In this document: positions 7,723-60,738 of the stretch, in pieces | Layout of the letters: each line of letters begins with the position of its first letter | Numbering within the stretch: position 1 is the first letter of the stretch | Assembly (NCBI GenBank): GCA_963738405.1 | Contig: CAVTWJ010000023.1 | Location: forward strand, 128,001 to 192,000 | Length of the DNA: 64,000 nucleotides | Origin: a candidate division FCPU426 bacterium | GTDB lineage: Bacteria; Oederibacteriota; Muellerivitia; Muellerivitales; Muellerivitaceae | Reading direction: 5' to 3' | Notes under the pieces: generated by a model | What the model was told of the DNA's origin: nothing | Database searches by the model: none | What the model saw: the letters and a program-made list of their open reading frames with translations, nothing else | Position numbers and translations under genes: made by a program

Positions 7723-7823
7723 GGGTTTCCTTTGAAGTGGGTTTGAGGAGAAAACATTGTATCGGCGGACTTTGGAACTTCCCACCGAATTTTGGTTAAA
7801 AGAATTTCAAAAACAGAATTTTC

Positions 7824-7915
7824 ACCACCAAGTCACCAAGACACAAAGAAAAGCATTGATTACTAATCCAAAAAAACCATTTAAGTCTTTCTTGGTGCCT
7901 TGGCGTCTTGGTGGT
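7824..7915. repeat. Tandem-unit inverted repeat element (family A), copy 1
   Basis: ACCACCAAG-TCACCAAG-ACACAAAG ... CTTGGTGC-CTTGGCGT-CTTGGTGGT. Confidence 0.9.
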
Positions 7916-12332: not shown

Positions 12333-12356
12333 TTGTATCTCCCAATAAAGGTTTTC

Positions 12357-12437
12357 ACCACAAGGGCACCAAGAAAATCTTGAGGGTTTAAATCCAAATC
12401 TTTTTTGCTGTCCTTGGTGACTTGGTGTCTTGGTGGT
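12357..12437. repeat. Family A inverted repeat element, copy 2 (between sufB and sufC)
   Basis: ACCACAAGGGCACCAAG ... CTTGGTGACTTGGTGTCTTGGTGGT. Confidence 0.88.
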
Positions 12438-12452
12438 TAATCGGTTTTTTTC

Positions 12453-13898
12453 TCATCCAACGCTTCCTTCAAGGCTCACAGCCAGCAGTTTTTGGGCTTC
12501 CACCGCGAACTCCATGGGCAGTTTGCGGAAAACTTCCTTGCAGAATCCGTTCACGATCAGGTTCACCGCGTCTTCGGAGGATAGCCCCCTTTGACGGCAG
12601 TAGAAAATCTGATCTTCGCTGATTTTGGATGTGGAAGCCTCATGCCCCACCTTGGCGCTGTTGTTGCGCACGTCGATGTAAGGCACCGTATGGGCCCCGC
12701 ACTCGGAACTCATCAATAGCGAATCGCACTGGGTGTAGTTTTGGGCGCCTTCCGCTTTAGGCATGATCCGCACCAGGCCCCGGTAGGTGTTTTGGCCGTG
12801 GCCGGCCGAGATTCCCTTTGAAATAACGGTACTTTTGGTGTTTTTACCCATGTGGATCATCTTGGTGCCCGTATCGGCCTGTTGGTAGTTATTGGCCACC
12901 GCCACGGAGTAAAACTCGCCCACCGAATTATCGCCCTGCAAAATACAGCTGGGATATTTCCAGGTAATAGCCGACCCGGTTTCTACCTGGGTCCATGAAA
13001 TTTTGGAAGAATCGCCCCGGCAGGCGCCCCGCTTGGTGACGAAGTTGTAAACCCCGCCCTTGCCCTCTTTGTCGCCGGGATACCAGTTTTGGACGGTGGA
13101 ATATTTGATTTCGGCATTGCCCAGCGCGATCAGTTCCACCACCGCCGCGTGTAATTGATTTTCGTCCCGCATGGGGGCCGTACAGCCTTCCAGGTAGCTC
13201 ACATAAGAACCTTCGTCGGCGATGAGGAGAGTACGCTCGAACTGTCCGGTCTTGGCGGCGTTGATGCGGAAGTAGGTGGAAAGTTCCATCGGGCACCGCA
13301 CGCCCTTGGGGATGTAGCAGAAAGACCCGTCGGTGAAGACCGCGCTGTTCAGGGCCGCGTAAAAGTTGTCGTTGTAAGGCACAACCGTTCCTAAATATTT
13401 TTCAATTAGGTCGGGGTGTTCCAGCACCGCCTCGGAGAAAGAGCAAAAGATAACCCCCATTTCGCCGAGTTTCTTTTTAAAGGTTGTGCCTACCGATACG
13501 CTGTCGAATACCGCGTCCACCGCCACCCCTGCCAGCATTTCCCGTTCTTGAAGGGGCACTCCAAGTTTTTCGAAGGTCTTGAGGATTTCCGGGTCCACTT
13601 CGGCCAAGCTCTTGGGACCTTGCTTGGGGGCTGAGTAATAACACATGTCCTGGTAGTTGATGGCGGGGTAATGCACCGAGGCCCACTTGGGTTCTTTCAT
13701 CTTGGTCCAATAGCGGTAGCACTTCAGGCGCCATTGCAAAAGAAAATCAGGCTCTTTCTTCTTGTGCGAAATGAAGCGGATGATTTCTTCGTTTAATCCA
13801 GGGGGGGCCGAATCGGCTTCGATATCGGTGATAAAACCGAATTTATAGTCTTCCTGGGTGACCTGTTCGACTGTTTTATTTTGGGTTTCAGCAGCCAT
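12453..13898 (-). CDS. sufB: Fe-S cluster assembly protein SufB
   Basis: [42 protein letters not shown]. Confidence 0.98.
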
Positions 13899-18115: not shown

Positions 18116-20545
18116 TCAGGGTGAATTCTGTACCGGTATAGATATCGCCATCTTCACCACTTTCGGGTTATAGGGCTTGGCGCCGCGCGTGTGCCAGTTG
18201 GTCTCGACCTTGTCCCATTCGCCTGGATCCACGACAAACAAAACATGGTTCCCCGGAGCGAGGTTTTGCAAAACGCCTTCCAAAGCCTTAGGGCTCTGCG
18301 CCATCTGCGGGTTTTGATCTACGCCCCAAACATGGTCGCCCGGCAGAAGGTTCGATTTTTCCACTGGGCTGTTTTGCCATTCCCCTTCCACCCGTCCCCC
18401 ATCGCCCAACAACACACCTTGGTTCAGGTAAGGCAATCCACTCACGGGTGCGTTCTTCCCCGCTCGGGCGTTTCGAATCCAAAATTCCAAGGCGGATAGC
18501 AAATGCTGGCAATCCTCAGCGGTGGCGCATTGAAACACCAAGGGCACCTTCAAACTCGATACCACCAATGAAAGCTGGTAGATCGGGTGGGGCGTTCCTG
18601 ACAACACCTCAATCTGGCAGGTGTGGATGGCCCTTACTTCTTCCCAATAAAATTCAATCTTGCTGGGCCCGCCTAATGGAAGGCCAAAGGGGTTATCCCC
18701 CTGAAAGGTCAAAACCAGGCTCGACATGTTGGGCATGAGTGTCAGTATCTTTTGGGTATCTTTTCCCACCTTCAGGGAATATTTTTCCGAATCCTGCATA
18801 TCCCCGGTTCGGCGCCCGGCCATGTCGGGGTTGATGCCCTCATCCGGCGTGACGGGAAAATCTTTCACCGTGGAGGGAAGAGGTATGGGGGCTATCTCAG
18901 CCTCCAGCATTTCTATTGTCTCGTCGGAAGCCTGCCAAGCATGACTGGGGAGATAGACTTGGACTGGGGTGTTAGAAACTGGTGTTAAAGGCTTTTTATC
19001 CCGGGGCCTTATTACCTTTTGGCCCGGGACAACTAAACCCCGCACCTCAGCCTGTTGCTTCGGTGCAAGTGACAGGTCACTCAAGGGTGTTTTTTGCGAG
19101 GCCTGATCGACCTTGGAAGCCGCACTCTCTGAATGGGTCCATGGGCTGAAAAGCCGGCCCACAAAACCCTCACCCCAACCAAGCATTCGGCCCGGATGGT
19201 GCCAAGCCCAAAGGATCGCCCAAAAGACCAAGAAGGTGAAAGCGAGCTGGATCAACCCGTTCACCCACTTTCCCTCGGCGCAAAGGCGGATGCCCTTTTC
19301 CAACATTCGATAGGGCAGTTTCACCAACCATTCCAGGCCCTTTAACAATTGGCTCCCAACCCATTTCAAGAATCTCAGCCATAAGGATTTGGATGCCTTG
19401 GCTTTAGAGCCCCCTTTGCCCTTAACGCCCCCCTTTGAACTGGCCTTCGCCTTGCCCTGGGCTTTTACCGTGCCTAAGTCTGAGGCGGCTTTTGTAAGGT
19501 GACCGGCCACTGCCGTTAGAACCTTGTGCAGCCCGCCCTGGGCGGGAGTGGGGGCATTGAGGGCGGCTTTGCCGTAATCCTCCGGTTGGTGGCCTTCCTT
19601 GATCCACGCCACAAAGGCCTTTACCTTGGCCTCGGTCATCTTATGTTCTATGGCCACGGCCAATGCCCGTCTAACCAAGTCTTGGGTTTCGGGGGGTATG
19701 ACGGGATAAGGCCATAGCTTTTGGGGTTCCAGCTGGGCTGAAGCCTCAAGCCGAAGCCCGTGACTTGCTTGTCCGGGCTCAATGGGGGTATCAGGAGCCG
19801 GGATCCCGACTTTCTTCTTGACCCCAGGCTTTAGGCCTGTTCCAGGGCCCAAACCTGCCAATTGTGCGGCGGCAATCTCGGAAATGCCCTTATTTCCCTT
19901 ATTTGAATTGCTCGTAATACGAGCAATTGAGGTCAATTCCGGGTTTGAATTGCTCGCAGTGCGAGCAATTAACTCCCTAGCCTCCGAGTTTAAGAGTGGT
20001 AAGAGCTTGATTGCCCTATTTACCTTCTCCTCGTCCATCTTTCTTTTGTCCGCGATCTGCCTTTGGGTGAGGTTCGGGTTGGCCTTTATCAGCAGTTCAA
20101 TGTGCAGGTAATCCCCCCACCAGCCCCTATCCCTGACCTTATTATCCCAATAGAGAAGATCGGCGGCTTCTTCGGGGTTCGGGTTGTGGATAAAGCCATC
20201 GATGCTCTCCCATTGAAGCAGTTCTGCGGCCCTGTCCCGCAGTTCCCCGCCATAGATCAAGTAATTGAAATCCCCCAGCTCCCAGGGCTTGCCATCCCCC
20301 CTTAGCCGGGGGTCATCGGGATGAAGCTGGGCCCCATTGGCCAGGGGGTTGGCCCTATCGGGACCCACCTGGATGGGGTTCTGGAGCCCCCTTTCGGCCA
20401 TATCATCCGCCTGATCCTTAATTTCTTGTTCGGTGGGCTTACCGGGGTTGTCCGGATTGCGGCGGAGGTTCTTGCGGGGGATCGGCTGTTTGCCGGGGAA
20501 AATTACAGGCAGAAGCTTCAAAACGTCTTCGATAGATACGGGCAT
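18116..20545 (-). CDS. ParB/Srx N-terminal domain + HTH fused to a membrane segment and an unknown C-terminal region
   Basis: GLQNPIQV, LIYGGELRDRA (ParB-like arginine patch), LTQRQIADKRKMDEEKVNRAIKLL HTH and a hydrophobic segment near aa 430-450. Confidence 0.7.
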   Translation of the reverse strand: MPVSIEDVLKLLPVIFPGKQPIPRKNLRRNPDNPGKPTEQEIKDQADDMAERGLQNPIQVGPDRANPLANGAQLHPDDPRLRGDGKPWELGDFNYLIYGGELRDRAAELLQWESIDGFIHNPNPEEAADLLYWDNKVRDRGWWGDYLHIELLIKANPNLTQRQIADKRKMDEEKVNRAIKLLPLLNSEARELIARTASNSNPELTSIARITSNSNKGNKGISEIAAAQLAGLGPGTGLKPGVKKKVGIPAPDTPIEPGQASHGLRLEASAQLEPQKLWPYPVIPPETQDLVRRALAVAIEHKMTEAKVKAFVAWIKEGHQPEDYGKAALNAPTPAQGGLHKVLTAVAGHLTKAASDLGTVKAQGKAKASSKGGVKGKGGSKAKASKSLWLRFLKWVGSQLLKGLEWLVKLPYRMLEKGIRLCAEGKWVNGLIQLAFTFLVFWAILWAWHHPGRMLGWGEGFVGRLFSPWTHSESAASKVDQASQKTPLSDLSLAPKQQAEVRGLVVPGQKVIRPRDKKPLTPVSNTPVQVYLPSHAWQASDETIEMLEAEIAPIPLPSTVKDFPVTPDEGINPDMAGRRTGDMQDSEKYSLKVGKDTQKILTLMPNMSSLVLTFQGDNPFGLPLGGPSKIEFYWEEVRAIHTCQIEVLSGTPHPIYQLSLVVSSLKVPLVFQCATAEDCQHLLSALEFWIRNARAGKNAPVSGLPYLNQGVLLGDGGRVEGEWQNSPVEKSNLLPGDHVWGVDQNPQMAQSPKALEGVLQNLAPGNHVLFVVDPGEWDKVETNWHTRGAKPYNPKVVKMAISIPVQNSP
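19906..19970. repeat. Two 23-bp palindromes inside the ParB-like gene (parS-like candidates)
   Basis: AATTGCTCGTA-A-TACGAGCAATT (19906-19928) and AATTGCTCGCA-G-TGCGAGCAATT (19948-19970), 42 bp apart. Confidence 0.85.
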
Positions 20546-21990: not shown

Positions 21991-22006
21991 AAAAATCATT
22001 TTATGG

Positions 22007-22034
22007 ATAATTTTTCCAGGAAAATTCAGGCGGG
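22007..22034. repeat. Direct repeat (right) flanking the Sel1 gene
   Basis: ATAATTTTTCCAGGAAAATTCAGGCGGG. Confidence 0.6.
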
Positions 22035-22199
22035 CTTCATCAAATGCCATCTCTGCAAAAAGGGTGTGAGGTTGATGACCAGCAGATCCCACAGGAACTT
22101 CAAAATAAACAGGGCCTGGTGCCAGTAACAAATACAAATAACCAATAGGGTCGCGAAAAGAATCGCAAAAACGCCTTTATAACTTCCTTCTTGATACAT
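22026..22199 (-). CDS. Small membrane protein (57 aa) coupled to gntK
   Basis: MYQEGSYKGVFAILFATLLVICICYWHQALFILKFLWDLL...; its ATG overlaps the gntK stop (TAATG). Confidence 0.55.
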   Translation of the reverse strand: MYQEGSYKGVFAILFATLLVICICYWHQALFILKFLWDLLVINLTPFLQRWHLMKPA

Positions 22200-22684
22200 T
22201 AGTTCTCCAGATTTAATCGCGAATGAATCTTCTCAACCATTTTATCCACTGGCAGGGCAATGTCCACCACAAGGGCTTCCGTCGGTTCTTCCAGGTCATG
22301 AAATTGGGTCTCAAGCAACTGGGTTGGAAAAAAATGTCCAGCTCGGGACAAGAGACGTCGATGGACTAAGTCATGATTCCCTTTTAAGTAAATCCACTTC
22401 AACTTCTCGTTCGATTCCAAAATGCGCCGGTATTTGGCCTTGAGGGCTGAACAGGCCAAAACAAAAATTGAATTTTGTTTTCTCCATTCTTTCATCTTTT
22501 CACTGATCAACTTTAACCAGGGTTCCCGGTCTTCGTCCGTTAAAGCCTCTCCCGTTTTCATCTTCCTCGCATTTTCAACCGGGTGAAAATCATCCCCCTC
22601 ATAGAAAGGGCAGTTCAAAACTTCCGCCAGCTTTTTCCCCACAGTCGTTTTTCCGCTTCCCGCTACTCCCATCACGATGATCAC
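22199..22684 (-). CDS. gntK: Gluconokinase
   Basis: MGVAGSGKTT, EGDDFHP, LTDEDREPWL, ACSALK, GHFF. Confidence 0.93.
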   Translation of the reverse strand: MIIVMGVAGSGKTTVGKKLAEVLNCPFYEGDDFHPVENARKMKTGEALTDEDREPWLKLISEKMKEWRKQNSIFVLACSALKAKYRRILESNEKLKWIYLKGNHDLVHRRLLSRAGHFFPTQLLETQFHDLEEPTEALVVDIALPVDKMVEKIHSRLNLEN

Positions 22685-22707
22685 TTTTAGTACCCTCCGA
22701 AATTTTC

Positions 22708-22794
22708 ACCACCAAGGCACCAAGACGCCAAGAAAACCTTCAGTTTTTAAAATCCTTGAATTTGCCTTCCTTGGTGACTTCGTGTCTTGGTGGT
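22708..22794. repeat. Family A inverted repeat element, copy 3
   Basis: ACCACCAAGGCACCAAGACGCCAAG ... CTTGGTGACTTCGTGTCTTGGTGGT. Confidence 0.9.
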
Positions 22795-22796
22795 AA

Positions 22797-23585
22797 TTAT
22801 TGGTTTTTTTCATTTTTTTCTTCCTTCGAAGAAAGGGACAGGTAGAAGTCGAGGGTCTTGAGGTGCTTTTCAAAGGTTTGTTGAAGGTATTCCAGGGTGG
22901 TCAATAAAACGGAACGGGCCTGGGAAGGCGTCAATTTCAAAAGCGTCGCCCGCGAAAGGGGTAATTCGAGCAGTTTCTTGAGCCATGCCAGGGACTGGGG
23001 ATTCACTTGAAGCCGGGAAGGACCCACGGGGGAGCAGGAAGCGCAAAGGGCCCCGCCCCGGTGGGGCACCAGATTCGCCTTTTTTCCCTGTAAGGATTCC
23101 CCGCATTCGGCGCAATCGGTGAATTCCAACGGGTAGCCCCCTTCCCTTAAAAAACGAAGGTTGAAGGCGGCTAGAAGCTGTTCCCTTTGGGCCGGTTCCT
23201 TTTCCCAACCTGCCAACAAGGCTCTCACCCCGTCAAAAAGAACAGGATGGGGTTCCCCCTCCGGCAGGCATCCCAAAAGAATATCGGCCAAAAGCTGAAG
23301 AAGGGCGATAGCGGTTAAATCTTTTTTTAAATCAGGGTGCCCGTTAAGAACCTTGGCCTGGGATAGGCTGTAAGAGTCGCCGCGTTTTGCGGGATGCAGC
23401 ACGAAGGATGATTCGGTGAAAAATTCCAGGGCGGGGGCCATCCGGCTCTTGGGCTTCCTTACCCCCCGGGCGAAGGCCCGGATTCTTCCGCTTTCCTTGG
23501 TCATCAAGCGGACCCACTTGTCCGCCTCGCCCGAAGGGCTGGCCGAAAGGACAAAGCCCCGTTCGGTTTTTAAAGGTTTAGACAA
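22797..23585 (-). CDS. recO: DNA repair protein RecO
   Basis: GEADK, ARGVRKPKSR and a CAEC...CASC zinc site; start placed at TTG 23585 after GAGAGG. Confidence 0.9.
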   Translation of the reverse strand: MSKPLKTERGFVLSASPSGEADKWVRLMTKESGRIRAFARGVRKPKSRMAPALEFFTESSFVLHPAKRGDSYSLSQAKVLNGHPDLKKDLTAIALLQLLADILLGCLPEGEPHPVLFDGVRALLAGWEKEPAQREQLLAAFNLRFLREGGYPLEFTDCAECGESLQGKKANLVPHRGGALCASCSPVGPSRLQVNPQSLAWLKKLLELPLSRATLLKLTPSQARSVLLTTLEYLQQTFEKHLKTLDFYLSLSSKEEKNEKNQ

Positions 23586-23597
23586 AAACAACCCTCT

Positions 23598-23738
23598 CAC
23601 CACCACGATACGTCCCCTCCAGGGACCGGCTTGTATCGCACAAAGACACCAAGGAAGGCCAGAAAAAAGATTTGGATTTACGGTGTTCATCAAACAACTT
23701 CTTAACGGTGTTCTTGGTGTCTTCGTGTCTTGGTGGTG
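23598..23738. repeat. Family A element, copy 4, with a hairpin inserted in the left arm
   Basis: CACCACCAC[GATACGTCCC..GGGAC..GTATC]GCACAAAGACACCAAG ... CTTGGTGTCTTCGTGTCTTGGTGGTG. Confidence 0.8.
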
Positions 23739-23780
23739 AAAATATCTTTTTCTTTTGAGTTTTTTTCACGGTTTTAAGAT

Positions 23781-24845
23781 TCAAACTTGAGATTCCCTTT
23801 CATCCAGCAGGGCCACCGAGAGGGCGGGAAAATAAAGGGCGCAAAAAACCACAAAAAAGGCCGCCGTGAACAGCATTCCAAAGAAACTCAAGAACCCCAC
23901 CAAAGGCACCAAAAGCGCCAGTATCAAGAAAATCTGGACCACGATAAAAAGCGCCGCTAGGCCTATCAGGGCCAAAAAGACGCACTTCGTGAAATGCCAG
24001 CCCTGGGCAGAGCAGGATTTCCAGCCAAGCGTTAAGGATTCGGCGATGCCTTTGCCGCTTCCCACCCAAGCCTTAACCGCCAGCGAATAGGCCACGATTC
24101 CAAAAGCCACGGCAAGGTAAAGGAGGAAAACAGGGATGCTGAAGCAAACCATGATGGCCAAAGAAAGGCCGTCGCTTAAATGCAGGGCATGGATGAATAA
24201 ACCAACCCCCATCCCAACGACGCGGAAACCCAGGCCGACCCCTAAGGAAATCACGAACAATAGAGCCAGGGTTGCCAGATAGGGGAGGAAACGCCCTAAG
24301 GCATCCTTAAAAAATTCTCCGAGGGAAAAACCCTTCCCCTCCCTCTTAAGCCTCCAAAAGGCCCCGTAGATACCGCCATTGACCAGGGCTTCCAAAAACA
24401 GCGCCCACAGGCAATAAAAAAACAGGAGACCCAAAAAAATACCAAGCCAGGAAGTATCGGATGTCCCTATGGAATAAAGTTTATTTGTAAATTCCTGGGG
24501 ATCGTAGCTGTCCGGGTTTTGAATAATATCCCCGAAGGCCTGCCCCATGGCCGCGATGAGCGGCCAACACCCAACCAGAAAAACCACCCCCAGCATGGCC
24601 AGGTTCATCAGGGCCGCCAGGGACTGGAGGATCAACAGGGGCCACATTTTCATGCAGGCTTGAAAGGCGTTTTGGAACAGGACAGAGAAGGAAGTTTCCG
24701 CGCCCACGGAGGGAGAAGGTGTGGCCGTTGCCTCGGGCGCGGCATTCGGGAGCACCACGCTTTCGACAGAACTTAAGCGGGGTTTGCGACGGGGTGTTCT
24801 GGGACGAGACGATTTTCTTACCGTCCGCTTCACTGATTTCGGCAT
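23781..24845 (-). CDS. Polytopic membrane protein of unknown function
   Basis: About six TM helices after a basic, Pro-rich N-terminus. Confidence 0.75.
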   Translation of the reverse strand: MPKSVKRTVRKSSRPRTPRRKPRLSSVESVVLPNAAPEATATPSPSVGAETSFSVLFQNAFQACMKMWPLLILQSLAALMNLAMLGVVFLVGCWPLIAAMGQAFGDIIQNPDSYDPQEFTNKLYSIGTSDTSWLGIFLGLLFFYCLWALFLEALVNGGIYGAFWRLKREGKGFSLGEFFKDALGRFLPYLATLALLFVISLGVGLGFRVVGMGVGLFIHALHLSDGLSLAIMVCFSIPVFLLYLAVAFGIVAYSLAVKAWVGSGKGIAESLTLGWKSCSAQGWHFTKCVFLALIGLAALFIVVQIFLILALLVPLVGFLSFFGMLFTAAFFVVFCALYFPALSVALLDERESQV

Positions 24846-24881
24846 ATTGATCTCCGTTGTTAATCTTTCTTTTTAAACCAC

Positions 24882-24909
24882 TGTCCAATCAGGATCCCCA
24901 TCGCGGACA
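24882..24909. repeat. Family B palindrome 1 (degenerate)
   Basis: TGTCCAATCAGGATCCCCATCGCGGACA. Confidence 0.7.
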
Positions 24910-24956
24910 AGCCAAACACTTCATTGAAATTTGTATTCGGGGTATAAATCACCCGT

Positions 24957-25694
24957 TTATTTACCTAGTCGCAACTTTAATACGCTCAAAACCTTTTGGC
25001 GAGTTAGAACTGGAAGTCGGCTCAAAACCAAAGCGGAAACTTCCTTCATTTGTTCAAACAAAACAGATTCTTCTGAAGTGTCCTTCAATAAAGATGCCGA
25101 ACTATCCTTCATTGCGTCTTCGACACCATCTTCATCCAATTTACGGTCTTGCTCAGTTTTGTTTTGGCGTTCTCTCTCCTCCTGTTCGCCCATGGAAGAG
25201 ATACGACTTTGGCTATCCGCATTCGAGGTCCAATCCTCTTTCAATTCATGAACACGATTCAACAATCGGTTAATTTCCTTCAAGCCTTCCCATATCTCTT
25301 CCCCCGAAATTCCCGGTATCTTTCGCAAATCGGAAAGAACAAAGTCTTTCACACCTCGATCCAAACCCTTACCCCAATTCCGCATATCGGAAACATCCTC
25401 TTTGCCCGAAACAAAACCGATAAATGTATTGCAGGTCTCTTCGCCTACTTGATTAATTATTTTTTTACTTTGTTGGGTCGACATACCACTAATTGTCTTC
25501 AAAAAACGGCCATCTCCAAATAATTCGTAACTATTTTTTTGAGTTTCTTCCTCGTTTCTTAAATCGCGAAGACGAGTTATCAATTCCGCCTGGTGGATCT
25601 TATAAGTTTTGAATTGTTGGAAGAGAAAATACGAAAGAACAACGAAAAGTAATAGAAAAAGGTAAAAGTTGGCTGAATATTTATTCTTTTTCAT
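24957..25694 (-). CDS. Hypothetical protein with N-terminal membrane anchor (cassette)
   Basis: 245-aa AT-rich ORF filling the interval between sites 1 and 2. Confidence 0.75.
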   Translation of the reverse strand: MKKNKYSANFYLFLLLFVVLSYFLFQQFKTYKIHQAELITRLRDLRNEEETQKNSYELFGDGRFLKTISGMSTQQSKKIINQVGEETCNTFIGFVSGKEDVSDMRNWGKGLDRGVKDFVLSDLRKIPGISGEEIWEGLKEINRLLNRVHELKEDWTSNADSQSRISSMGEQEERERQNKTEQDRKLDEDGVEDAMKDSSASLLKDTSEESVLFEQMKEVSALVLSRLPVLTRQKVLSVLKLRLGK

Positions 25695-25717
25695 ACTCGT
25701 CCCATTTTTCCTTTAAG

Positions 25718-25745
25718 TGTCCACGACGGGTCCCTGTCGTGGACA
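25718..25745. repeat. Family B palindrome 2
   Basis: TGTCCACGACGGGTCCCTGTCGTGGACA. Confidence 0.95.
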
Positions 25746-25757
25746 AGGTCTAGGGCG

Positions 25758-26201
25758 CTAAATCGGATTTCGAAAGTATTTTCCAAGAAATTCCCTAGGG
25801 GTAAGGATTTCCACTTCCTTCACTCGCTCCAGGGGACGGATATCTTGGTGGTCTCCCGTGACTAGGACACGGGCCTGGGCATCCACCGCGCATTCCAAAA
25901 TCCGGTTGTCAGCGTCTTTCCTTTTGATGGTTGTGAAATGGGAGCGGGGCTCGATGAGAACAAATACGGTTTTGAGCCTTCGCCTTAATTCAATGATGCG
26001 GTGATGGTCCCACCCGGCTTTTCGGGCCAGGGTATTTTCCAACTCGGCAAGGATATAGGACGAAACGACAGCTTCGATTTTTCCTTCCCGGGCCAATTCC
26101 AAGACTTTTAAGGGAGGGCTATCTTTTCCAAATGCCAGCGCGGAAAACAATACGTTGGTATCGACAACCACCCGTAATGGTTTACTTTCTGGCATCGTCA
26201 A
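25758..26201 (-). CDS. PIN-domain toxin (TIGR00305-like)
   Basis: RVVVDTNVLFSAL, DADNRILECA, LVTGD, ILTPREF. Confidence 0.88.
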   Translation of the reverse strand: MTMPESKPLRVVVDTNVLFSALAFGKDSPPLKVLELAREGKIEAVVSSYILAELENTLARKAGWDHHRIIELRRRLKTVFVLIEPRSHFTTIKRKDADNRILECAVDAQARVLVTGDHQDIRPLERVKEVEILTPREFLGKYFRNPI

Positions 26202-26430
26202 TCAGCTGTTCAACGTCCTCCGCCGTCCTGATTCCCATTTGGGCGGCCTTGCCTCGACCGTAAGAGACCAATTCCTGCCAATCCGCCTCCTCTTTTTGAT
26301 AACGCCTGAGCGCGTCCCGGAGCAACTCGGAGCGAGTCATTCCCTTTACCTTTGCCAGCCGGTCCATTTCACTGTAAACCTTTGGCGGGAGGGATATGGT
26401 TGTTGTTTTGCTGGTTCTTCCCGTGGCCAT
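26182..26430 (-). CDS. CopG/RHH antitoxin
   Basis: TTISLP..RSELLRDALRRY; overlaps the PIN gene. Confidence 0.85.
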   Translation of the reverse strand: MATGRTSKTTTISLPPKVYSEMDRLAKVKGMTRSELLRDALRRYQKEEADWQELVSYGRGKAAQMGIRTAEDVEQLIDDARK

Positions 26431-26551
26431 ATTTTTATCCTGTATTACTAAGTGTTACAATAAGCTTAATCCCAGAATACTTCGAATTCAATCCCGCAAT
26501 TCATTGAGAAACGGCCAAAATGAAAATCTGGGCTATTATCGGGCTTTCACC

Positions 26552-26579
26552 TGTCCACGATGGGTCCCCGTCGTGGACA
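26552..26579. repeat. Family B palindrome 3
   Basis: TGTCCACGATGGGTCCCCGTCGTGGACA. Confidence 0.95.
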
Positions 26580-26597
26580 ACCTTTTATTTTTTAAGT

Positions 26598-26990
26598 CTA
26601 TTCTTTTTCCAAATCCATTTCTAATTCTTTGAAAATAAGGTAAAGCTTATGGCTTTCCTCTTTCAGTTTTTCATTAATTTCAGTTCCGATTTGTCCATAT
26701 TTTCGCGGATCAAACCAACAATCTAAAAGAAGACTACCCATACCGCCTATCAGAGACTTCTTTAGAAAAGTTATTTGTTTCTTGGAAAGTGGGCCTTCTT
26801 GCACCTCGATTAAAGAAGCGATGGCATTAAGTTCTCCCCAGCGTACTAGGGCATAAGGGTCCGGAACTAAGTCATTAATTTTTCCAGGAACGTCTTTATC
26901 CAAATATAAAATTTCAAACTTATCACGTGTAAGAGGTTTAAAAACTTCAGCTGTGATCCTAAGTTGTTCAACAAATTTTTGTTTATTCAT
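26598..26990 (-). CDS. Hypothetical protein with GGMGS motif (cassette)
   Basis: 130-aa AT-rich ORF with a GAGGTGG RBS, filling the interval between sites 3 and 4. Confidence 0.75.
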   Translation of the reverse strand: MNKQKFVEQLRITAEVFKPLTRDKFEILYLDKDVPGKINDLVPDPYALVRWGELNAIASLIEVQEGPLSKKQITFLKKSLIGGMGSLLLDCWFDPRKYGQIGTEINEKLKEESHKLYLIFKELEMDLEKE

Positions 26991-27013
26991 AATTAAATAC
27001 CCACCTCAATATC

Positions 27014-27041
27014 TGTCCACGACGGGTCCCCGTCGTGGACA
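27014..27041. repeat. Family B palindrome 4 (perfect consensus)
   Basis: TGTCCACGACGGGTCCCCGTCGTGGACA. Confidence 0.97.
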
Positions 27042-27042
27042 T

Positions 27043-27399
27043 CTAATTCCAATTAGATTTTTTTCGTTTCATGTCAAATAATAACCTTAAAAATAATTTA
27101 CCTATTTTTGATAAAACAAAAATTGCCACAATACTAACAAAAACACTAATTATTCTAATTGTCCATACAATGCTTTCTGGAATAACACCCGCAAAAGATT
27201 GGCGGTGAGTTATCACGAAAACTGTGAAAAACCCGTCGAATAAATAAAAAATGGCGAAAGCGCAGACCAAAAAAAAGATGAGCAAAGCATCAGACCATTT
27301 TTTACGAAATTTATTTACTGGATCATCGTCAAAAGTATCAGGCATCTTTAATCCTAAGTTTTGTTTCTCTCTCAATTTATCTTCATTTTCTTTGTCCAC
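27043..27399 (-). CDS. Small two-TM membrane protein (cassette)
   Basis: AT-rich; stop codon 1 bp from site 4; GTG start inside site 5, or ATG at 27345. Confidence 0.7.
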   Translation of the reverse strand: MDKENEDKLREKQNLGLKMPDTFDDDPVNKFRKKWSDALLIFFLVCAFAIFYLFDGFFTVFVITHRQSFAGVIPESIVWTIRIISVFVSIVAIFVLSKIGKLFLRLLFDMKRKKSNWN

Positions 27400-27420
27400 G
27401 AAGGGTCCCCGTCGCGGACA
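27393..27420. repeat. Family B palindrome 5
   Basis: TGTCCACGAAGGGTCCCCGTCGCGGACA. Confidence 0.93.
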
Positions 27421-27423
27421 ACA

Positions 27424-27792
27424 TTAAATCCAATTTACTTTATTTGGGCCCTCAGGTTTAGGCGGATTCTTTTTCCGCAATTCATCCTGCTTTTTGACGA
27501 TTTTAATAACCCAATAAAACCAATTTATTAAAAATAGTGCTAACCAAAAAAGCCTCAAATTAGACACAGCATCTTGGGTATCCTGTTTTAATATCGAATG
27601 AACACAAAAGCTGGAAAGCGGGAAAAAGATAAACATTATTCCTGTCAAGGTGAACAAACCGCCAAATGCCCAAACCGCGCCTTCGTATTTCGATAAATTA
27701 GAAAATGCAAATTTAAAATATATCGTTGCTAATCCCGAAAGAAGAACCCCGCCTGATAATCCCCAAAATATAAATTCACCCATTCTTTTCAT
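27424..27792 (-). CDS. Small three-TM membrane protein (cassette)
   Basis: AT-rich; stop codon 3 bp from site 5 and start 20 bp from site 6. Confidence 0.72.
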   Translation of the reverse strand: MKRMGEFIFWGLSGGVLLSGLATIYFKFAFSNLSKYEGAVWAFGGLFTLTGIMFIFFPLSSFCVHSILKQDTQDAVSNLRLFWLALFLINWFYWVIKIVKKQDELRKKNPPKPEGPNKVNWI

Positions 27793-27812
27793 CCTTCAAA
27801 CCCATAATTTGT

Positions 27813-27840
27813 TGTCCACGAAGGGTCCCTGTCGTGAACA
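27813..27840. repeat. Family B palindrome 6
   Basis: TGTCCACGAAGGGTCCCTGTCGTGAACA. Confidence 0.92.
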
Positions 27841-27866
27841 ACATTTCCCGACCAACTCTTTAACTT

Positions 27867-28265
27867 TTATGGCAAACAATGAAATCCATGTTCTCCAAAA
27901 TGCTTGTCAAAGGTGTGAACGTTCTTGACCCCGTTTCGCCGCATAACTTCAAAGCTGACGCAATCCACGAGGCTCAAATTCCTTCGTTTGGCGGTCAGAA
28001 CGGCGGCAAGTCCCGCCTCATGGTAGTTCTCATCGACCCATTCCAATGATAGAAGCGGTACCACATCCCTTTGAAAATCGGCCACGGCTTCCAAACCCAA
28101 ACGGTTTTGGATTAGGGAGAACGTCTCTAAAAGGGTGTAATTAGTGGTCACCAAGGCGGCATCCGACTCCAGCAGGGATTTCCAAGCTTGATCGGCTTTT
28201 TCGTGGAAGCGGTCTTCTTTTGTCAAAAGTGCGATAAAAAAGGAAGTATCAATGAAAGAGGTCAC
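27867..28265 (-). CDS. vapC: VapC-family PIN toxin
   Basis: FIDTSFFIAL, D.FH, LSLVDCVSF, TFDKHF. Confidence 0.9.
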   Translation of the reverse strand: MTSFIDTSFFIALLTKEDRFHEKADQAWKSLLESDAALVTTNYTLLETFSLIQNRLGLEAVADFQRDVVPLLSLEWVDENYHEAGLAAVLTAKRRNLSLVDCVSFEVMRRNGVKNVHTFDKHFGEHGFHCLP

Positions 28266-28507
28266 TTGGCGTAGTCATCCGCCAGGTACTTGTCGTGATG
28301 GATGGAAAGATCGGTGTGCTTGGAATGAAATTTCCCGGAAATGGCGATGGCGCGTTTCCGCCGCTCCTCAGGGCTGATGATTCCATTCTTTAAAAATAAT
28401 TCAACCCCCTGCCGGATGGCCTCCGCCATGGATATATGACGTTCCTTGGCGATTTTTTTCAATGAAGTGGTTTGCTTTTGGGTTAATTGAATTTGGGTGC
28501 GAACCAC
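28262..28507 (-). CDS. CopG/RHH antitoxin (VapB-like)
   Basis: MVRTQIQL..SMAEAIRQGV..DLSIHHDKYL; 4-bp overlap with vapC. Confidence 0.88.
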   Translation of the reverse strand: MVRTQIQLTQKQTTSLKKIAKERHISMAEAIRQGVELFLKNGIISPEERRKRAIAISGKFHSKHTDLSIHHDKYLADDYAK

Positions 28508-28578
28508 GGACCCCTCCCGAGTGATAACACTTACAGCATTACGATAACACTAAAGACTAATCTTGAAGCGAGAAAATC

Positions 28579-28816
28579 GGGGCCACATTCTCATGCAGGC
28601 TTGGAAGGCGTTTTGGAACAGGGTGGAGAAAGAAGTTTCCGCGCCAACGGACGAGGAAGGCGCGACCGGTGTCTCGGGCGCAGCATTCGGGAGCACCACG
28701 CTTTCGACGGAGGCCGGTACGCTTTTGCGGCGCGGGGCCCTGCGGGGGGAAGCAGTTTTCCTGGTTCTTTTGACCGGCTTCGGCATGTGTATCTCCGTTG
28801 TTAATCTTTCTTTTTA
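28579..28816 (-). pseudogene. Truncated duplicate of the 5' end and upstream region of the 23781-24845 gene
   Basis: Colinear with 24638-24875 (offset 3941): MPKPVKRT..VESVVLPNAAPE..LFQNAFQACMRMWP, after which similarity stops. Confidence 0.85.
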
Positions 28817-28841
28817 TGGACAACCATTACTTAAATTTCAT

Positions 28842-28869
28842 TGTCCACGATGGATCCCAATCATGGACA
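28842..28869. repeat. Family B palindrome 7
   Basis: TGTCCACGATGGATCCCAATCATGGACA; an extra half-site TGGACA lies at about 28817. Confidence 0.85.
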
Positions 28870-28879
28870 AGGCTATCTT

Positions 28880-29290
28880 TCAAATCCAGGGATTGAAAAG
28901 CTTCAACCTTGAAAATGAAAAGTCATGGGTATTGCGGGTGACCAGGGTGAGATTGTGGGTAATTGCTGTTGCCGCGATAAACGCGTCCACCGTCGGCAAT
29001 GGGCGATTGGCCTGTGCTTCCAAAAGTCCCCAAGCTTCGGCTACCTTGATATCCACTGGCAATATTCTTTCTTCAAATTGAATTGGGACGTCTTTCTCAA
29101 GGAATTGAATAAGCTTGGTTTTCCGGGAACCATGTTCCATTTTCTCAATTCCTTTTCGGATTTCCCCCACGGTCAAAACGCTCAAATAAAGCGATCCTTG
29201 GTCCGCATCCTTCAGCCAACTTGACACCTTGGGTTCCGGATGTTTCTTGAAGAGTTCGGAAAGGACGTTGGTGTCCAAAAGGTATTTCAA
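28880..29290 (-). CDS. vapC: VapC-family PIN toxin
   Basis: YLLDTNVLSE, DAFIAATA, LVTRNTHDF. Confidence 0.92.
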   Translation of the reverse strand: MKYLLDTNVLSELFKKHPEPKVSSWLKDADQGSLYLSVLTVGEIRKGIEKMEHGSRKTKLIQFLEKDVPIQFEERILPVDIKVAEAWGLLEAQANRPLPTVDAFIAATAITHNLTLVTRNTHDFSFSRLKLFNPWI

Positions 29291-29535
29291 AACTTCACCT
29301 TTCGCGAGACGGATTTATTCCTTTGAAAATTCAAATCCAATCCGCGAAAAGGAGAATGCCTAAAAAACTCAACTAGGTTGGGTTTGGTTTTTCTCAGGCG
29401 CTCGTAGTCCTTTTTGGAAATCACAACGGCCTCTTCACGACCGTGTAATGTGATGGACTGCGGACCATTGTTTTTCACTGTTCGAATCAGTTCGCTGAAC
29501 CTGGCCTTGGCGGTTTGCAGTTGCCACGAAGTCAT
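29287..29535 (-). CDS. Phd/YefM-family antitoxin
   Basis: WQLQTAKARFSELI..GPQSITLHG..AVVIS. Confidence 0.92.
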   Translation of the reverse strand: MTSWQLQTAKARFSELIRTVKNNGPQSITLHGREEAVVISKKDYERLRKTKPNLVEFFRHSPFRGLDLNFQRNKSVSRKVKF

Positions 29536-29575
29536 CGGTTGCCCCCGTTGAAATATTTATGACTATTCTGACTAG

Positions 29576-29604
29576 ATTCTATATAGGACGAAACGCTTTG
29601 TCAA
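29576..29604 (-). promoter_or_regulatory. Sigma70 promoter of the Phd-VapC cassette
   Basis: TTGACA-17-TAGAAT on the minus strand, 8 bp inside site 8; a tandem GACTA(G)TTCT-like repeat just downstream may be the operator. Confidence 0.75.
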
Positions 29605-29612
29605 TTTTCCAT

Positions 29613-29641
29613 TGTCCGCGCCGGGGACCCCCTCGCGGACA
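29613..29641. repeat. Family B palindrome 8 (inverted core, 29 bp)
   Basis: TGTCCGCGCCGGGGACCCCCTCGCGGACA. Confidence 0.8.
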
Positions 29642-29864
29642 ACAGATCCCGACCCACTCTTTAACTTTTATGGCAAACAATGAAATCCATGTTCTCCAAA
29701 ATGCTTGTCAAAGGTGTGGACGTTCTTGACCCCGTTTCGCCTCATCACCTCAAAGTTGACGCAATTCACGAGGCTTAAATTCCTTCGTTTGGCGGTCAGA
29801 ACGGCGGCAAGTCCCGCCTCATGGTAGTTCTCATCGACCCATTCCAATGATAGAAGCGGCACCA
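29642..29864 (-). pseudogene. 3' fragment duplicate of vapC (27867-28265)
   Basis: Colinear with 27841-28063 (offset 1801). It lacks the N-terminal half, and LVDCVS has become LVNCVN. Confidence 0.88.
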
Positions 29865-29890
29865 GTGGTTAATTGGTTTTGATATAGATT

Positions 29891-30391
29891 TTAGCGGTAA
29901 TTATTGAACTGGAGGGGAACCTTGATCTCCTGGGCGCTCCGAAGCAACTGCATCACCCCTTGAAGATCGTCCTTGTCCTTACCTGAAACCCTTACCTTCT
30001 CATCCACGATGGATACCTGCACCTTGAGCTTAGAATCCTTGACCCGCTTCACGATATCCTTGCAGGCCTCCATGGGCATTCCGCTGACGATCTTGACCTT
30101 CTGGTTAACCGTGCCGCTGAAGGCCGATTCGGCCTTTTGGTAATCCATGGCCTTGGGGGAGATGTTGCGCTTGATGAGTTTGCCGTTTAATACGTCCACC
30201 ACCGCTTTGAGGCGGGAATCATTATCAGAAACGATTTCCAATTCTTTGGTGGCCTTGTTGAGGGTGATCTTGCTGATGCTTCCCTTGAAATCGTAGCGCT
30301 GGGTAATTTCTTTCATCGCTTGGTTGACGGCGTTGTCCACTTCCTGCAGGTCCACCTCGGAAACCACGTCAAAGGAGTATTGATCAGCCAT
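29891..30391 (-). CDS. yajQ: YajQ family cyclic di-GMP/nucleotide-binding protein
   Basis: SFDVVSEVDLQEVDNAVNQ, RYDFKGS, PLQFNNYR. Confidence 0.96.
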   Translation of the reverse strand: MADQYSFDVVSEVDLQEVDNAVNQAMKEITQRYDFKGSISKITLNKATKELEIVSDNDSRLKAVVDVLNGKLIKRNISPKAMDYQKAESAFSGTVNQKVKIVSGMPMEACKDIVKRVKDSKLKVQVSIVDEKVRVSGKDKDDLQGVMQLLRSAQEIKVPLQFNNYR

Positions 30392-30425
30392 AGGTCACCT
30401 CCCAAATTATTAAAAAAGCAAATTA

Positions 30426-30518
30426 ACCACCAAGGCACAAAGACACCAAGTTAAACCTGGGATTTTAAACCCTAATCATTAATCTTTGTCTTTCTTGGTG
30501 ACTTGGTGTCTTGGTGGT
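30426..30518. repeat. Family A element, copy 5
   Basis: ACCACCAAGGCACAAAGACACCAAG ... CTTGGTGACTTGGTGTCTTGGTGGT. Confidence 0.92.
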
Positions 30519-30551
30519 GAAAAAGGTTTTTATCCTTGCGCCCCCGGTTTT

Positions 30552-31487
30552 TCAGTCACCGTCGCTGACATCCTTATCCGCTGAGGTTTGGGCTCCCTGG
30601 GGAAGGGTGATCTCCACAACCTGTCCGGTAACGCCCAAAACGCCCAGGGGCTTGCCGTTGAGCTGGATATCCACGCCCCCGGCATTTCCGATGCGAAGCT
30701 TGAAATATTTTGTGGCCTGGAAAACCCTGGTATCTCCCTGGGCCATATCCAAGGCTTGGCTGGTTGTGCTGTCATCCAAGGTGACCAAGACCCAAGCCTT
30801 GTCCAAAGCCTTGATGGTTAGGTGTTGGTAAGGATCTTTCGTTTTGGAAGCATCGTTCGGGGATTCCGCCTCGGCTAGCTCAGAGGCCGCCGACTGGACC
30901 AGCGGGGACGCGTTGGGGGTATCGGAAGTCGACGCGCTTTTGAAAACAGGCCAATGAAACTTGGCGAAGAGAGATTGTCCCTTTTCCCATCCCAGCCAGC
31001 AGACTCCAAAAAAACAAAGAACCAAAACGACCTGGCCCACAAAGGAATAAAAGGATCTCCACTTAACCCTCCGTCGCCCGGTTCCGGACCGGGATGGCAT
31101 GGGCTCGTGCAGTTCGGGTAAATCCTCCCCAAGTTCCACATCGGCATTTGCTTGAACCGCGTCCAACCGCTGAATGACCGCGGGCCGGGGGCCCAAAAAG
31201 GGGTTCCGTTTTTCCATCTCGGCTTCGGCGTTCATGGGCTCGATCTTGACCTGCACCTCGGGCACTTGGGCCTTGAATTCCTGGGTCATCTTCTTTTCGT
31301 CCAGCCCCACCACTTTGCAATAGGCCCTAATAAAACCTTTGGCGTAGGTTTGGGAAGGAAAAACCTCGTAATGGTCTTCTTCCAAAGATTCCAGGTACTT
31401 CACGGGAATGCGGGTTTTTTGGGAAATGGTTTCCAGCGAAATCTTTTTGGATTCCCTGGCCGACTTCAGGTCTGATCCGACGCTCAT
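30552..31487 (-). CDS. rodZ: RodZ-like protein (HTH_25 + TM + DUF4115)
   Basis: LKSARE..YAKGFIRAY; C-terminal IGNAGGV. Confidence 0.88.
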   Translation of the reverse strand: MSVGSDLKSARESKKISLETISQKTRIPVKYLESLEEDHYEVFPSQTYAKGFIRAYCKVVGLDEKKMTQEFKAQVPEVQVKIEPMNAEAEMEKRNPFLGPRPAVIQRLDAVQANADVELGEDLPELHEPMPSRSGTGRRRVKWRSFYSFVGQVVLVLCFFGVCWLGWEKGQSLFAKFHWPVFKSASTSDTPNASPLVQSAASELAEAESPNDASKTKDPYQHLTIKALDKAWVLVTLDDSTTSQALDMAQGDTRVFQATKYFKLRIGNAGGVDIQLNGKPLGVLGVTGQVVEITLPQGAQTSADKDVSDGD

Positions 31488-32218
31488 TGGAAAATGTCTC
31501 CTTCTACAACCTGCGCGGTTTTGGGGGGTGTGAATTCAAAAATTTCATCCTTGAGGCCTTTATTCAGGGTGAGCTGGGAAAACCTTGCCTTGTTGATCAT
31601 GGCGGGGGTTGTGATTTCAACCTGGGAGGGCCACCAGTCTTTTTTTCGAATCGTAACCTTCATATGGTCAAAGCCGGACTGGTCTTTATCGAGAGGTGTG
31701 AAATCCAGCACCACTTCGTCACCGTTTTCCGAGGCGATCTTGACCTTGCTGATTGTGATGTATTGTTTGAGCTGTTGGCCGACTCCCAGATAAACGGGCT
31801 TGGCATCCTTGCCCTTGACCCCCTTTTGGACATAGACCATCTTTTCAGAGGGCTGGTACATCTGGGAACCTTTGGCCCCAACGTAAAGAAATTGTTCTTC
31901 CGGCTTGGTGTAGTGGACAAAAATCTTGTCCGGGGACTTGGTAAAGACCTTGCCTTCGTAATTCTGGGTTTGGCCCGAGAGGGAGTCTTTCATTTCCATC
32001 CGCAGGTCCATCTGGGAATCCAGGGCCGCCAATTGGGCCGCCTCCACCAGGTCCGAAATATCCCCTACGGTGAGGGGCTTTTTATCTTCCGCTTGGGCCG
32101 AACCCAGGAAACCCAATAGGATTCCGGATAGAAGAAAAATAATCCCCAAAGGGCGGGCGGCAGTCCAAAACCTTTTATTCGGGTTCATATCAATCCAGCT
32201 TTTCATTGATTTCCTCAT
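31484..32218 (-). CDS. lolA: LolA-family outer-membrane lipoprotein carrier
   Basis: Signal peptide, beta-rich fold and C-terminal FEFTPP; lies between ftsK and rodZ. Confidence 0.75.
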   Translation of the reverse strand: MRKSMKSWIDMNPNKRFWTAARPLGIIFLLSGILLGFLGSAQAEDKKPLTVGDISDLVEAAQLAALDSQMDLRMEMKDSLSGQTQNYEGKVFTKSPDKIFVHYTKPEEQFLYVGAKGSQMYQPSEKMVYVQKGVKGKDAKPVYLGVGQQLKQYITISKVKIASENGDEVVLDFTPLDKDQSGFDHMKVTIRKKDWWPSQVEITTPAMINKARFSQLTLNKGLKDEIFEFTPPKTAQVVEGDIFQ

Positions 32219-34595: not shown

Positions 34596-34749
34596 CAGGT
34601 CCTCAAGGGGGGTGTGGAATCACCCCAAAAATTTAGTGTTTGCCGGGGATAGAAGAAAAAACACATGCTGGAAATAAAGTATAACTGAGGCTTAAGGACC
34701 TTTTGAAGCAAATACTTGGTTTAATGGTTCTTTCCAAACAAAAATTTTC

Positions 34750-34918
34750 ACCACCAAGACACATGCCGACCTTCCATTAAGACTTTTGAAGAGGTCGGTA
34801 TAGTCCTGGATCCCTTAGCCCAAACGGCTAAGGAGGACAAAGACACCAAGAAAACCCAAAGGTATTAAATCTAAAATCTCTGCGCTGTTCTTACTTGGTG
34901 ACTTGGTGCCTTGGTGGT
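34750..34918. repeat. Family A element, copy 6, with nested hairpins
   Basis: ACCACCAAGACAC[about 75-bp insert]AAAGACACCAAG ... CTTGGTGACTTGGTGCCTTGGTGGT. Confidence 0.85.
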
Positions 34919-60139: not shown

Positions 60140-60688
60140 CTATTTTCCAGATATTAATTTAGTAACTGGAGACGGTTTAATATTTTTAAATTTTCCATCC
60201 GGATCAACTAATTGCCGCAAGAAAAGAACACAAGCATTGAAATCGTCTGGCAATTTAGAAATTCTGTTAAGTTTTCGGATCAAAAGAATCAAATTAAAAC
60301 TTGCAACAAATATCCAAAAAAAGACCGATCGCCAAGGTTGATCAAAATACATAATTGGTAAAATGGTCCACAAAATCACGGACTTAAAAACAAAACCAAT
60401 CCAAATCCTAAAGTTTGAAATGCCATATACAGCAAGGCCATTACCATCCATGCCATAACCCTCCCACCTAAACGTTACAGAAAACGTGTCATCTTTCTTA
60501 ATGTTACGTCCGTAAATCTTTTTTACCAAACTCACATTCGCAGAAATACCTTTTTCATCCCATTCAGAAACTTGAAAATAGGGAACATGATTTTTCTCTA
60601 ACATTTTTTCATGTTTTTTAAAAACATCGTTACATCCTTTCAAATCCAAATCGGTTCTAATATGTGTTATTTTGGGAATCGAAAACAT
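60140..60688 (-). CDS. AT-rich hypothetical membrane protein (lone cassette-like gene)
   Basis: Two C-terminal TMs; ATG 22 bp from family B site 9. Confidence 0.7.
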   Translation of the reverse strand: MFSIPKITHIRTDLDLKGCNDVFKKHEKMLEKNHVPYFQVSEWDEKGISANVSLVKKIYGRNIKKDDTFSVTFRWEGYGMDGNGLAVYGISNFRIWIGFVFKSVILWTILPIMYFDQPWRSVFFWIFVASFNLILLIRKLNRISKLPDDFNACVLFLRQLVDPDGKFKNIKPSPVTKLISGK

Positions 60689-60710
60689 ATTGCCCCTGAC
60701 GTTATTTTCT

Positions 60711-60738
60711 TGTCCACGACGGGTCCCCGTCGTGGACA
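60711..60738. repeat. Family B palindrome 9 (perfect consensus)
   Basis: TGTCCACGACGGGTCCCCGTCGTGGACA, identical to 27014-27041. Confidence 0.97.

Follow-up and report, generated by a model that had tools for sequence, protein, structure and literature searches.

Integrons, the standard example of gene-cassette systems, depend on a tyrosine integrase and on folded attC sites, and in systems of repetitive extragenic palindromes (REPs) the repeats flank the gene of a REP-associated tyrosine transposase (RAYT), with conserved guide bases next to the hairpin. The window analyzed here is the whole 64,000-nt stretch at positions 128,001 to 192,000 of contig CAVTWJ010000023.1 (assembly GCA_963738405.1) from a candidate division FCPU426 bacterium, and at positions 24882 to 29641 it contains an array in which small, exchangeable gene cassettes are linked by a 28-base site. 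The system, which belongs to a family of uncultured soil bacteria, works like an integron but is none; it uses the parts of serine integrases but is no standard large serine recombinase (LSR) system. We consider it fairly probable that integron logic arose here by convergence from unrelated parts: a minimised serine recombinase of about 277 aa, with only a catalytic and a recombinase domain, would excise and insert single-gene circles at any symmetric 28-bp site, seeding arrays at many chromosomal places and allowing family-wide exchange. The literature searched, which was mostly open-access, yielded no description of the site, the enzyme clade or the system.

The initial annotation of this stretch, made from the sequence alone, described eight sites spaced 836, 834, 462, 379, 420, 1029 and 771 bp apart, and we found them at the same positions and spacings. 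It also gave the site the 11-6-11 geometry of Xer/dif sites, which was not borne out. The two outermost bases at each end of the proposed 6-bp spacer still belong to the palindrome, which leaves only a 2-bp centre; the site is therefore 13-TC-13, the geometry of serine recombinase sites. As the annotation stated, attC ends are missing: GTTRRRY was found near none of the eight window sites, and only one stray RYYYAAC was present. The sites of the window are as follows.

24882-24909: site 1, 13-TC-13, left arm degenerate
25718-25745: site 2
26552-26579: site 3
27014-27041: site 4, perfect consensus
27393-27420: site 5
27813-27840: site 6, homology to the cassette copy in genome G041 from 27826 (site position 14)
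28842-28869: site 7, homology to the copy in genome G014 from 28855 (site position 14)
29613-29641: site 8, 29 nt, broken 3-nt core, below the weight-matrix threshold
60711-60738: ninth site, single and perfect, between a LacI-type gene and an AT-rich open reading frame (ORF)

The array thus has seven good sites and a degenerate eighth. Five of the eight have at most 3 mismatches to the consensus arms, compared with no match in 100 shuffles, and sites 1 and 7 are more degenerate than these five. Site 8 is probably inactive; we rejected its reading as an inverted site because its right flank copies the right flank of site 6. At the place of the ninth site (window 60140-60738), genome G001 has a different gene and no site.

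Comparison of sequences between genomes indicates that the cassettes are almost certainly mobile at the site. The initial annotation had proposed a gene capture and shuffling platform served in trans, and this agrees with what we found: cassette content varies between genomes, with breakpoints inside the site. For this comparison, 550 distinct sites were gathered from the genome and from fetched loci of its relatives; they are a sample per genome and no census, kin genomes are not independent, and some genome labels may stand for the same genome. Among the 539 sites with both flanks, pairs sharing a 60-nt flank shared only the left one in 91 cases, only the right one in 36 and both in 1, so that a single flank was shared in 127 of the 128 pairs. 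We counted differing positions in the arms over independent edges, leaving out intron-adjacent sites. The 24 left-shared edges gave 9 in the left arm and 19 in the right arm, and the 32 right-shared edges gave 88 and 11, respectively; therefore, each half-site travels with its own flank. The crossover could be bounded to site positions 14-17. The central TC is present in 517 of the 550 sites and is less variable than positions 12-13, and one core is shared by 444.

Individual cassettes show the same pattern. The G001 and G024 copies of a 416-bp cassette differ as far as position 13 of the site and are then identical, from position 14 through the whole of the next site, and an 828-bp cassette of the source genome recurs in G004 with three internal differences. 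Altogether, 29 families of whole cassettes recur with new neighbours, and almost identical cassettes are found in different genera. Of 397 neighbouring site pairs, 389 have the same orientation. The longest ORF is on the same strand for 359 of the 389 cassettes and on the opposite one for 23, and 7 have none. The median cassette is 799 bp long, with its stop codon a median of 18 nt from a site. In G020 and G041, cassette 6 of the window has a site at either end and measures 790 and 798 bp, respectively. Homology to cassette 7 in G014, which retains there only the right half of the site, begins at site 7 position 14, and a relative of cassette 7 in G008 runs from site to site. The locus of the array is empty in all 20 relatives examined, in which yajQ adjoins the membrane gene with no site or cassette; these 20 were taken from the 29 relatives with a yajQ match, and three are of the same genus. 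A cryptic target site in the empty locus was not detected, the best scores being below -7 in six relatives.

Two observations concern the sites themselves. The arm upstream of cassette starts is about twice as variable as the arm after stops (mean 2.0 vs 0.9 mismatches, 550 sites), which is perhaps a trace of how cassettes form. Among the few cases of opposite orientation is an inverted duplicate of part of an array in G001 (L156:12272-13722).

A weight matrix detected 56 copies of the site at 21 loci in the genome, compared with 0, 1 and 0 in three shuffled genomes. The initial annotation had named a motif scattered among housekeeping genes, like an ordinary REP, as evidence against its proposal. 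The motif does occur genome-wide, yet 48 of the 56 copies lie with accessory genes in clusters of two to eight, and so it is not distributed in that way. The site pattern is present in 26 of 30 other genomes of the family and in one other genome of the order; one site-bearing record carries the name Candidatus Firestonebacteria. No site with at most 1 mismatch was found in G010, G019, G022 and G045, none of 15 genomes from other orders of the phylum had the pattern, and viral contigs gave 0 exact matches. The cargo was sampled as the longest ORF of 141 of 146 cassettes from other genomes and counted by hand, and some ORF calls may be wrong. These 141 ORFs included 27 toxins of toxin-antitoxin (TA) pairs and 5 GNAT acetyltransferases, and 70 had no Pfam match at 1e-5.

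The enzyme of the system is likely to be a short serine recombinase, whose activity is predicted. The initial annotation had suggested a tyrosine recombinase, or an HUH transposase such as a RAYT, and had advised looking for such genes beside the sites. Both suggestions proved wrong: in the source genome, a site lay within about 1.5 kb of none of 12 loci (9 tyrosine-recombinase and 3 Y1), and the site is instead tied to a shortened LSR. When 30 resolvase-domain loci from relatives were scored, three had a site, in each case behind a protein of 275-281 aa. The short gene is intact in five of 31 family genomes, and in all five copies a site follows 8-36 nt after the stop codon, as it also does after the stop in the metagenome copy that retains it (n = 1). 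No site was found near 7 longer LSR loci of the family or 8 full-length metagenome LSRs.

The short recombinase matches the Resolvase (PF00239) and Recombinase (PF07508) domains over the cut-off, and the catalytic motifs R18-V-S20 and D89-R90 are invariant in 22 sequences. Its 19 best homologues are 275-283 aa long with 68-96% identity, and all 19 clade members end before the zinc ribbon and have neither zinc ribbon nor coiled-coil. A quick tree placed the short recombinases in one clade (SH-aLRT 100), in which the ratio of non-synonymous to synonymous substitution rates (dN/dS) is 0.05-0.18, indicating purifying selection. The best structural matches of the predicted model (pLDDT 77.8) are serine integrases. 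Twelve further recombinase tails, truncated at the 5' end, also end in a site; one of them is the 3' remnant in the source genome (C4:54282-54421). We rejected an origin of these tails at pseudo-sites, as no sequence resembling a site is present at their 5' junctions, apart from that in G000 C4. Matches to PF00239 or PF07508 were not found in the source genome, but its assembly is 90.7% complete, so absence of the recombinase is not established. The four recombinase copies of G001 have a common left arm and a different first cassette after each. Genomes with the intact gene have a median of 48 site matches and the rest have 4, a comparison that includes non-independent kin. Upstream of the recombinase, three of the five cases (G001, G044 and G020) have ArdC genes and G001 also has a TraG-type ATPase; in G020 the recombinase-adjacent site is split by a group II intron.

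The 28-bp palindromes are likely to be double-stranded crossover sites of this shortened LSR, and a cassette unit would run from the central TC of one site to that of the next. By analogy with the serine recombinase family, a recombinase dimer would bind the two 13-bp arms, and a tetramer would cut both strands around TC/GA and exchange them by subunit rotation. The asymmetric dinucleotide would allow co-oriented products only. If the enzyme behaves like its relatives, the products would be a circle excised between direct repeats and a circle inserted into another site. As zinc ribbon and coiled-coil are absent, attP and attB would not be distinguished; every product site would therefore stay usable, and arrays could grow and reshuffle. 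We suppose that the enzyme is carried at the margin of conjugative-type islands with ArdC genes and works in trans; the source genome as assembled contains arrays but, of the enzyme, no more than a remnant. TA cassettes, which would carry their own promoters, probably stabilise the arrays, and promoterless cassettes are probably read through.

The available portion of a study on LI integrase (PMC3783163) bears on this mechanism in both directions. In that enzyme, the contacts of the recombinase domain cover 13 bp, and those of the zinc domain lie at positions 16-24; arms of 13 bp are consistent with a protein that has only the first of these two domains. LI integrase without its coiled-coil excises all four site pairs tested, like an unregulated resolvase. 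However, LI integrase without its zinc domain binds about 25-fold worse, and without its coiled-coil it gave no intermolecular recombination. Insertion by the short enzyme would therefore need compensation, and these deletion results make excision better supported than insertion, which array growth requires. Several of our own observations also weigh against the proposed system. Intact copies of the short gene are few and none was found in the source genome, and G021, with 73 site matches, shows recombinase fragments only. Nine of 13 relatives of the window cassette genes have no site nearby; therefore, these genes also exist and move without it. Few pairs are informative for the bound on the crossover, and differences on the linked side occur in some. 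No excised circle was seen in the sequencing-run contigs, which are short and without informative joints. Finally, degenerate outer arms should be over-represented at array ends, but the excess is weak (p 0.05-0.07).

Compared with integrons and clusters of attC sites lacking integron integrases (CALINs), the system shares arrays in which compact single-gene cassettes, mostly without promoters, have one orientation and end at a recombination site, as well as many TA cassettes, enzyme-less arrays, and group II introns beside sites. It differs in having no IntI, no attC ends, no hairpin selection, and a near-constant, double-stranded 28-bp site. IntI (TIGR02249) was over the cut-off in none of the 31 family genomes, the best source-genome protein tested scoring 76 bits against 265, and selection for folded sites was not detected: there is no covariation across the 550 sites, and hybrid sites do not fold. 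In integrons, attI with its Pc promoter marks the 5' end of the array. Here, the enzyme-adjacent site is recurrent and stands at the 3' end of the array, on which, unlike intI, the recombinase gene converges; a Pc-like promoter was sought only in the window scan. Instead of one platform, there are about 20 small arrays per genome.

The large serine integrases of LI/A118, Bxb1, phiC31, SPbeta and TP901-1 share with the present system the catalytic and recombinase domains with the catalytic serine motif, an asymmetric centre of 2 bp in the site, contact of each recombinase domain with 13 bp, and a gene that ends at its own site. The short enzyme differs from them in having no zinc ribbon or coiled-coil. 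In place of longer attP/attB pairs, there is one symmetric 28-bp site family, in which half-sites assort freely, with dozens of sites per genome. In the staphylococcal cassette chromosome (SCC/SCCmec; CcrAB, CcrC), a serine recombinase likewise acts in trans on several direct att sites, and there are cassettes without their own enzyme. However, SCC cassettes are 17-48 kb, at one locus and with full-length enzymes, according to the portions of the sources available, whereas those here are about 0.4-1.5 kb at many loci; the CcrB model gave 74 bits against a cut-off of 900. The pdif modules of Acinetobacter (XerC/XerD) are also bounded by 28-bp sites, contain one gene or a TA pair, and shuffle. 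In the accessible parts of the pdif literature, the sites are on plasmids, alternate in orientation and combine different XerC and XerD arms with varied 6-bp spacers, whereas the sites here are chromosomal direct repeats with symmetric arms and a fixed core. The part of a paper on small serine recombinases and defence that was available (PMC13552941) contains no cassette sites.

Among other explanations, one keeps the same enzyme and chemistry: the site would be the attachment site of a conjugative island integrated by the shortened recombinase, and the arrays would be no dedicated platform for capture but, as in SCC, accumulations of satellites and remnants of islands. The ArdC genes and TraG-type ATPase described above favour it, as does a 7-kb block in G044 that ends in the recombinase and is bounded by sites, and Ccr recombinases excise tandem cassettes in all combinations (PMC11470126, in the part available). 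Nevertheless, we regard it as unlikely, as cassettes with a median of 799 bp, one gene or TA pair and a stop codon 18 nt from a site look streamlined, not decayed; in addition, the recombinase of G004 lies near housekeeping genes, and no far-end site was found for the islands of G001, G024, G004 and G020 within the fetched DNA. A quite unlikely explanation, and a weak formal rival, is that a lone chromosomal Xer-type tyrosine recombinase moves the cassettes at 11-6-11 sites, as in Acinetobacter pdif, with the serine recombinase as a passenger. The length of 28 bp is that of dif, a single Xer homologue occurs in 30 of 31 genomes and would be available where the serine enzyme is missing, and one mismatch at the spacer edge does not block pdif recombination in the accessible text of PMC13141974. 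However, the four genomes in which no site was found (G010, G019, G022 and G045) all carry Xer, and the site is therefore not their dif. The alternating orientation and varied spacers reported for pdif also contrast with the 389 of 397 co-oriented neighbours and the one palindromic core here, and the site behind all five short serine recombinases would be left unexplained.

The two remaining explanations dispense with a double-stranded crossover site. It is very improbable that the palindrome is a single-strand hairpin for an HUH transposase (RAYT or IS200/IS605-type) or an attC-like folded site, although perfect copies fold well (z -5.9), the genome has three Y1 genes, and group II introns insert beside the site. 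Across the 550 sites, arm pairing equals the independent expectation at nearly all 13 positions and only 69 are perfect palindromes, which speaks against a substrate in hairpin form. Neither site 1 nor the recombinase-adjacent site folds, at most one base is conserved beyond the arms, so that conserved flanking guide bases are missing, and no site lies within 1.5 kb of the three Y1 loci. We give hardly any credence to the motif being an operator or an RNA-processing hairpin that marks foreign genes, as its fixed orientation just upstream of start codons might suggest. Regulation does not produce half-site exchange at the centre or flank reassortment at the site, so the breakpoint data largely refute this explanation, and the motif has no Rfam match.

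The genes and copied pieces of the array and its borders are listed below.

23781-24845, minus strand: chromosomal membrane-protein gene, 354 aa, left border of the array
24957-25694, minus strand: cassette 1 ORF, 245 aa, N-terminal hydrophobic stretch, no family; interval 39% GC
25758-26430, minus strand: cassette 2, ribbon-helix-helix (RHH) antitoxin 26182-26430 and PIN_3 toxin 25758-26201; 121 nt of upstream DNA
26598-26990, minus strand: cassette 3 ORF, 130 aa, no family; interval 34% GC
27043-27348, minus strand: cassette 4 ORF, about 101 aa, membrane-type, no family
27424-27792, minus strand: cassette 5 ORF, 122 aa, membrane-type, no family
27867-28507, minus strand: cassette 6, RHH antitoxin 28262-28507 and PIN toxin 27867-28265; 5' site lost here
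28579-28816, minus strand: copy of a 5' fragment of the membrane gene, 77% to 24638-24875; no junction site
28880-29535, minus strand: cassette 7, Phd/YefM antitoxin 29287-29535 and PIN toxin 28880-29290
29576-29604, minus strand: predicted sigma-70-type promoter of cassette 7, an 11/12 consensus match only
29624-29864, minus strand: copy of the right part of site 6 and the 3' third of the cassette 6 PIN gene, 93%
29891-30391, minus strand: yajQ (DUF520), right border of the array

The cargo is encoded entirely on the minus strand, and its stop codons are 1-47 nt from a site, as the initial annotation had it. Three of its further statements held in part. The starts of the non-TA ORFs of cassettes 1, 3 and 5 are indeed 20-23 nt from the next site, and that of cassette 4 is ambiguous between ATG 27348, which has a ribosome-binding motif, and a GTG inside site 5. 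AT-richness applies to the four single-ORF intervals (30-39% GC) and not to the three TA intervals (45-50%, compared with 52% for the genome). The rule of one ORF or TA pair per interval fails between sites 6 and 7, where the TA pair is accompanied by the 238-bp copy of the membrane-gene 5' end. This interval is a truncated cassette plus a copied chromosomal fragment, which is followed by a short right-arm remnant. The sigma-70-type consensus was matched 4 times in the window scan, compared with 8.0 in shuffles. For cassettes 1 and 3, a search of the ESM Atlas gave no usable match. The cassette 5 ORF has a 71% relative in G001, without sites. An Rfam scan of window 22000-32000 gave two matches, both at chance level.

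The duplicated locus reads as two neighbouring versions of VapC-site-[cassettes]-site-membrane gene, each with its own cassettes. In the copy of the membrane gene, 34 codons are identical, 16 synonymous and 19 non-synonymous; as it keeps the reading frame, this copy may stem from a sister lineage or from a duplication long ago. The VapC copy has 57 identical, 6 synonymous and 2 non-synonymous codons. Neither duplication junction carries a site.

Group II introns end 2 nt outside 24 of the 550 sites, a pattern that echoes the group IIC-attC introns described in the available part of PMC3001079. They target the site either 2 nt beyond one of its arms or internally, as in G020; the loci are L148:7757-9346, L157, L155, L158 and L160 in G001 and L147 in G020. 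Transposases of the IS110 family occur inside G001 arrays (L155, L153, L160 and L151), one type directly beside the site. A degenerate right arm followed by a short GC-rich inverted repeat recurs at G000 C5:28712, C12:86328 and C23:104817 and at L156, L215 and L217, and is possibly the end of another site-inserting element. A gene for an HflX-like GTPase travels as a 1.5-kb cassette (G000 C4:2223-3539 and C11:82000-83316; also G001 and G004). An expanded family of ParB-like proteins of 360-810 aa is represented at window 18116-20545, and several members lie beside cassette arrays; further members are at G000 C4:46861, C5:686, C14:60064, C23:8188 and C23:284129. A second, unrelated REP-like family, with paired inverted CACCAAG / CTTGGTG-rich arms and an AT-rich spacer, lies between housekeeping genes. 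It has 86 core matches in the genome and was observed at window 7805-7915, 12338-12470, 22689-22827, 23580-23770, 30407-30551 and 34731-34918.

The system makes two questions testable: whether a serine integrase can do without the zinc ribbon and coiled-coil, which are regarded as necessary to tight binding and to synapsis, and in what way new cassettes form, since several genes occur both with and without sites. The 277-aa enzyme and its 28-bp site are also a candidate tool for genome engineering, and if our interpretation is true, they would be a compact, cofactor-free serine counterpart of Cre/lox. Integron-finding tools would then miss a class of arrays, and cassette capture would have evolved in this family independently of integrons, on a cut-down serine integrase and family-wide.

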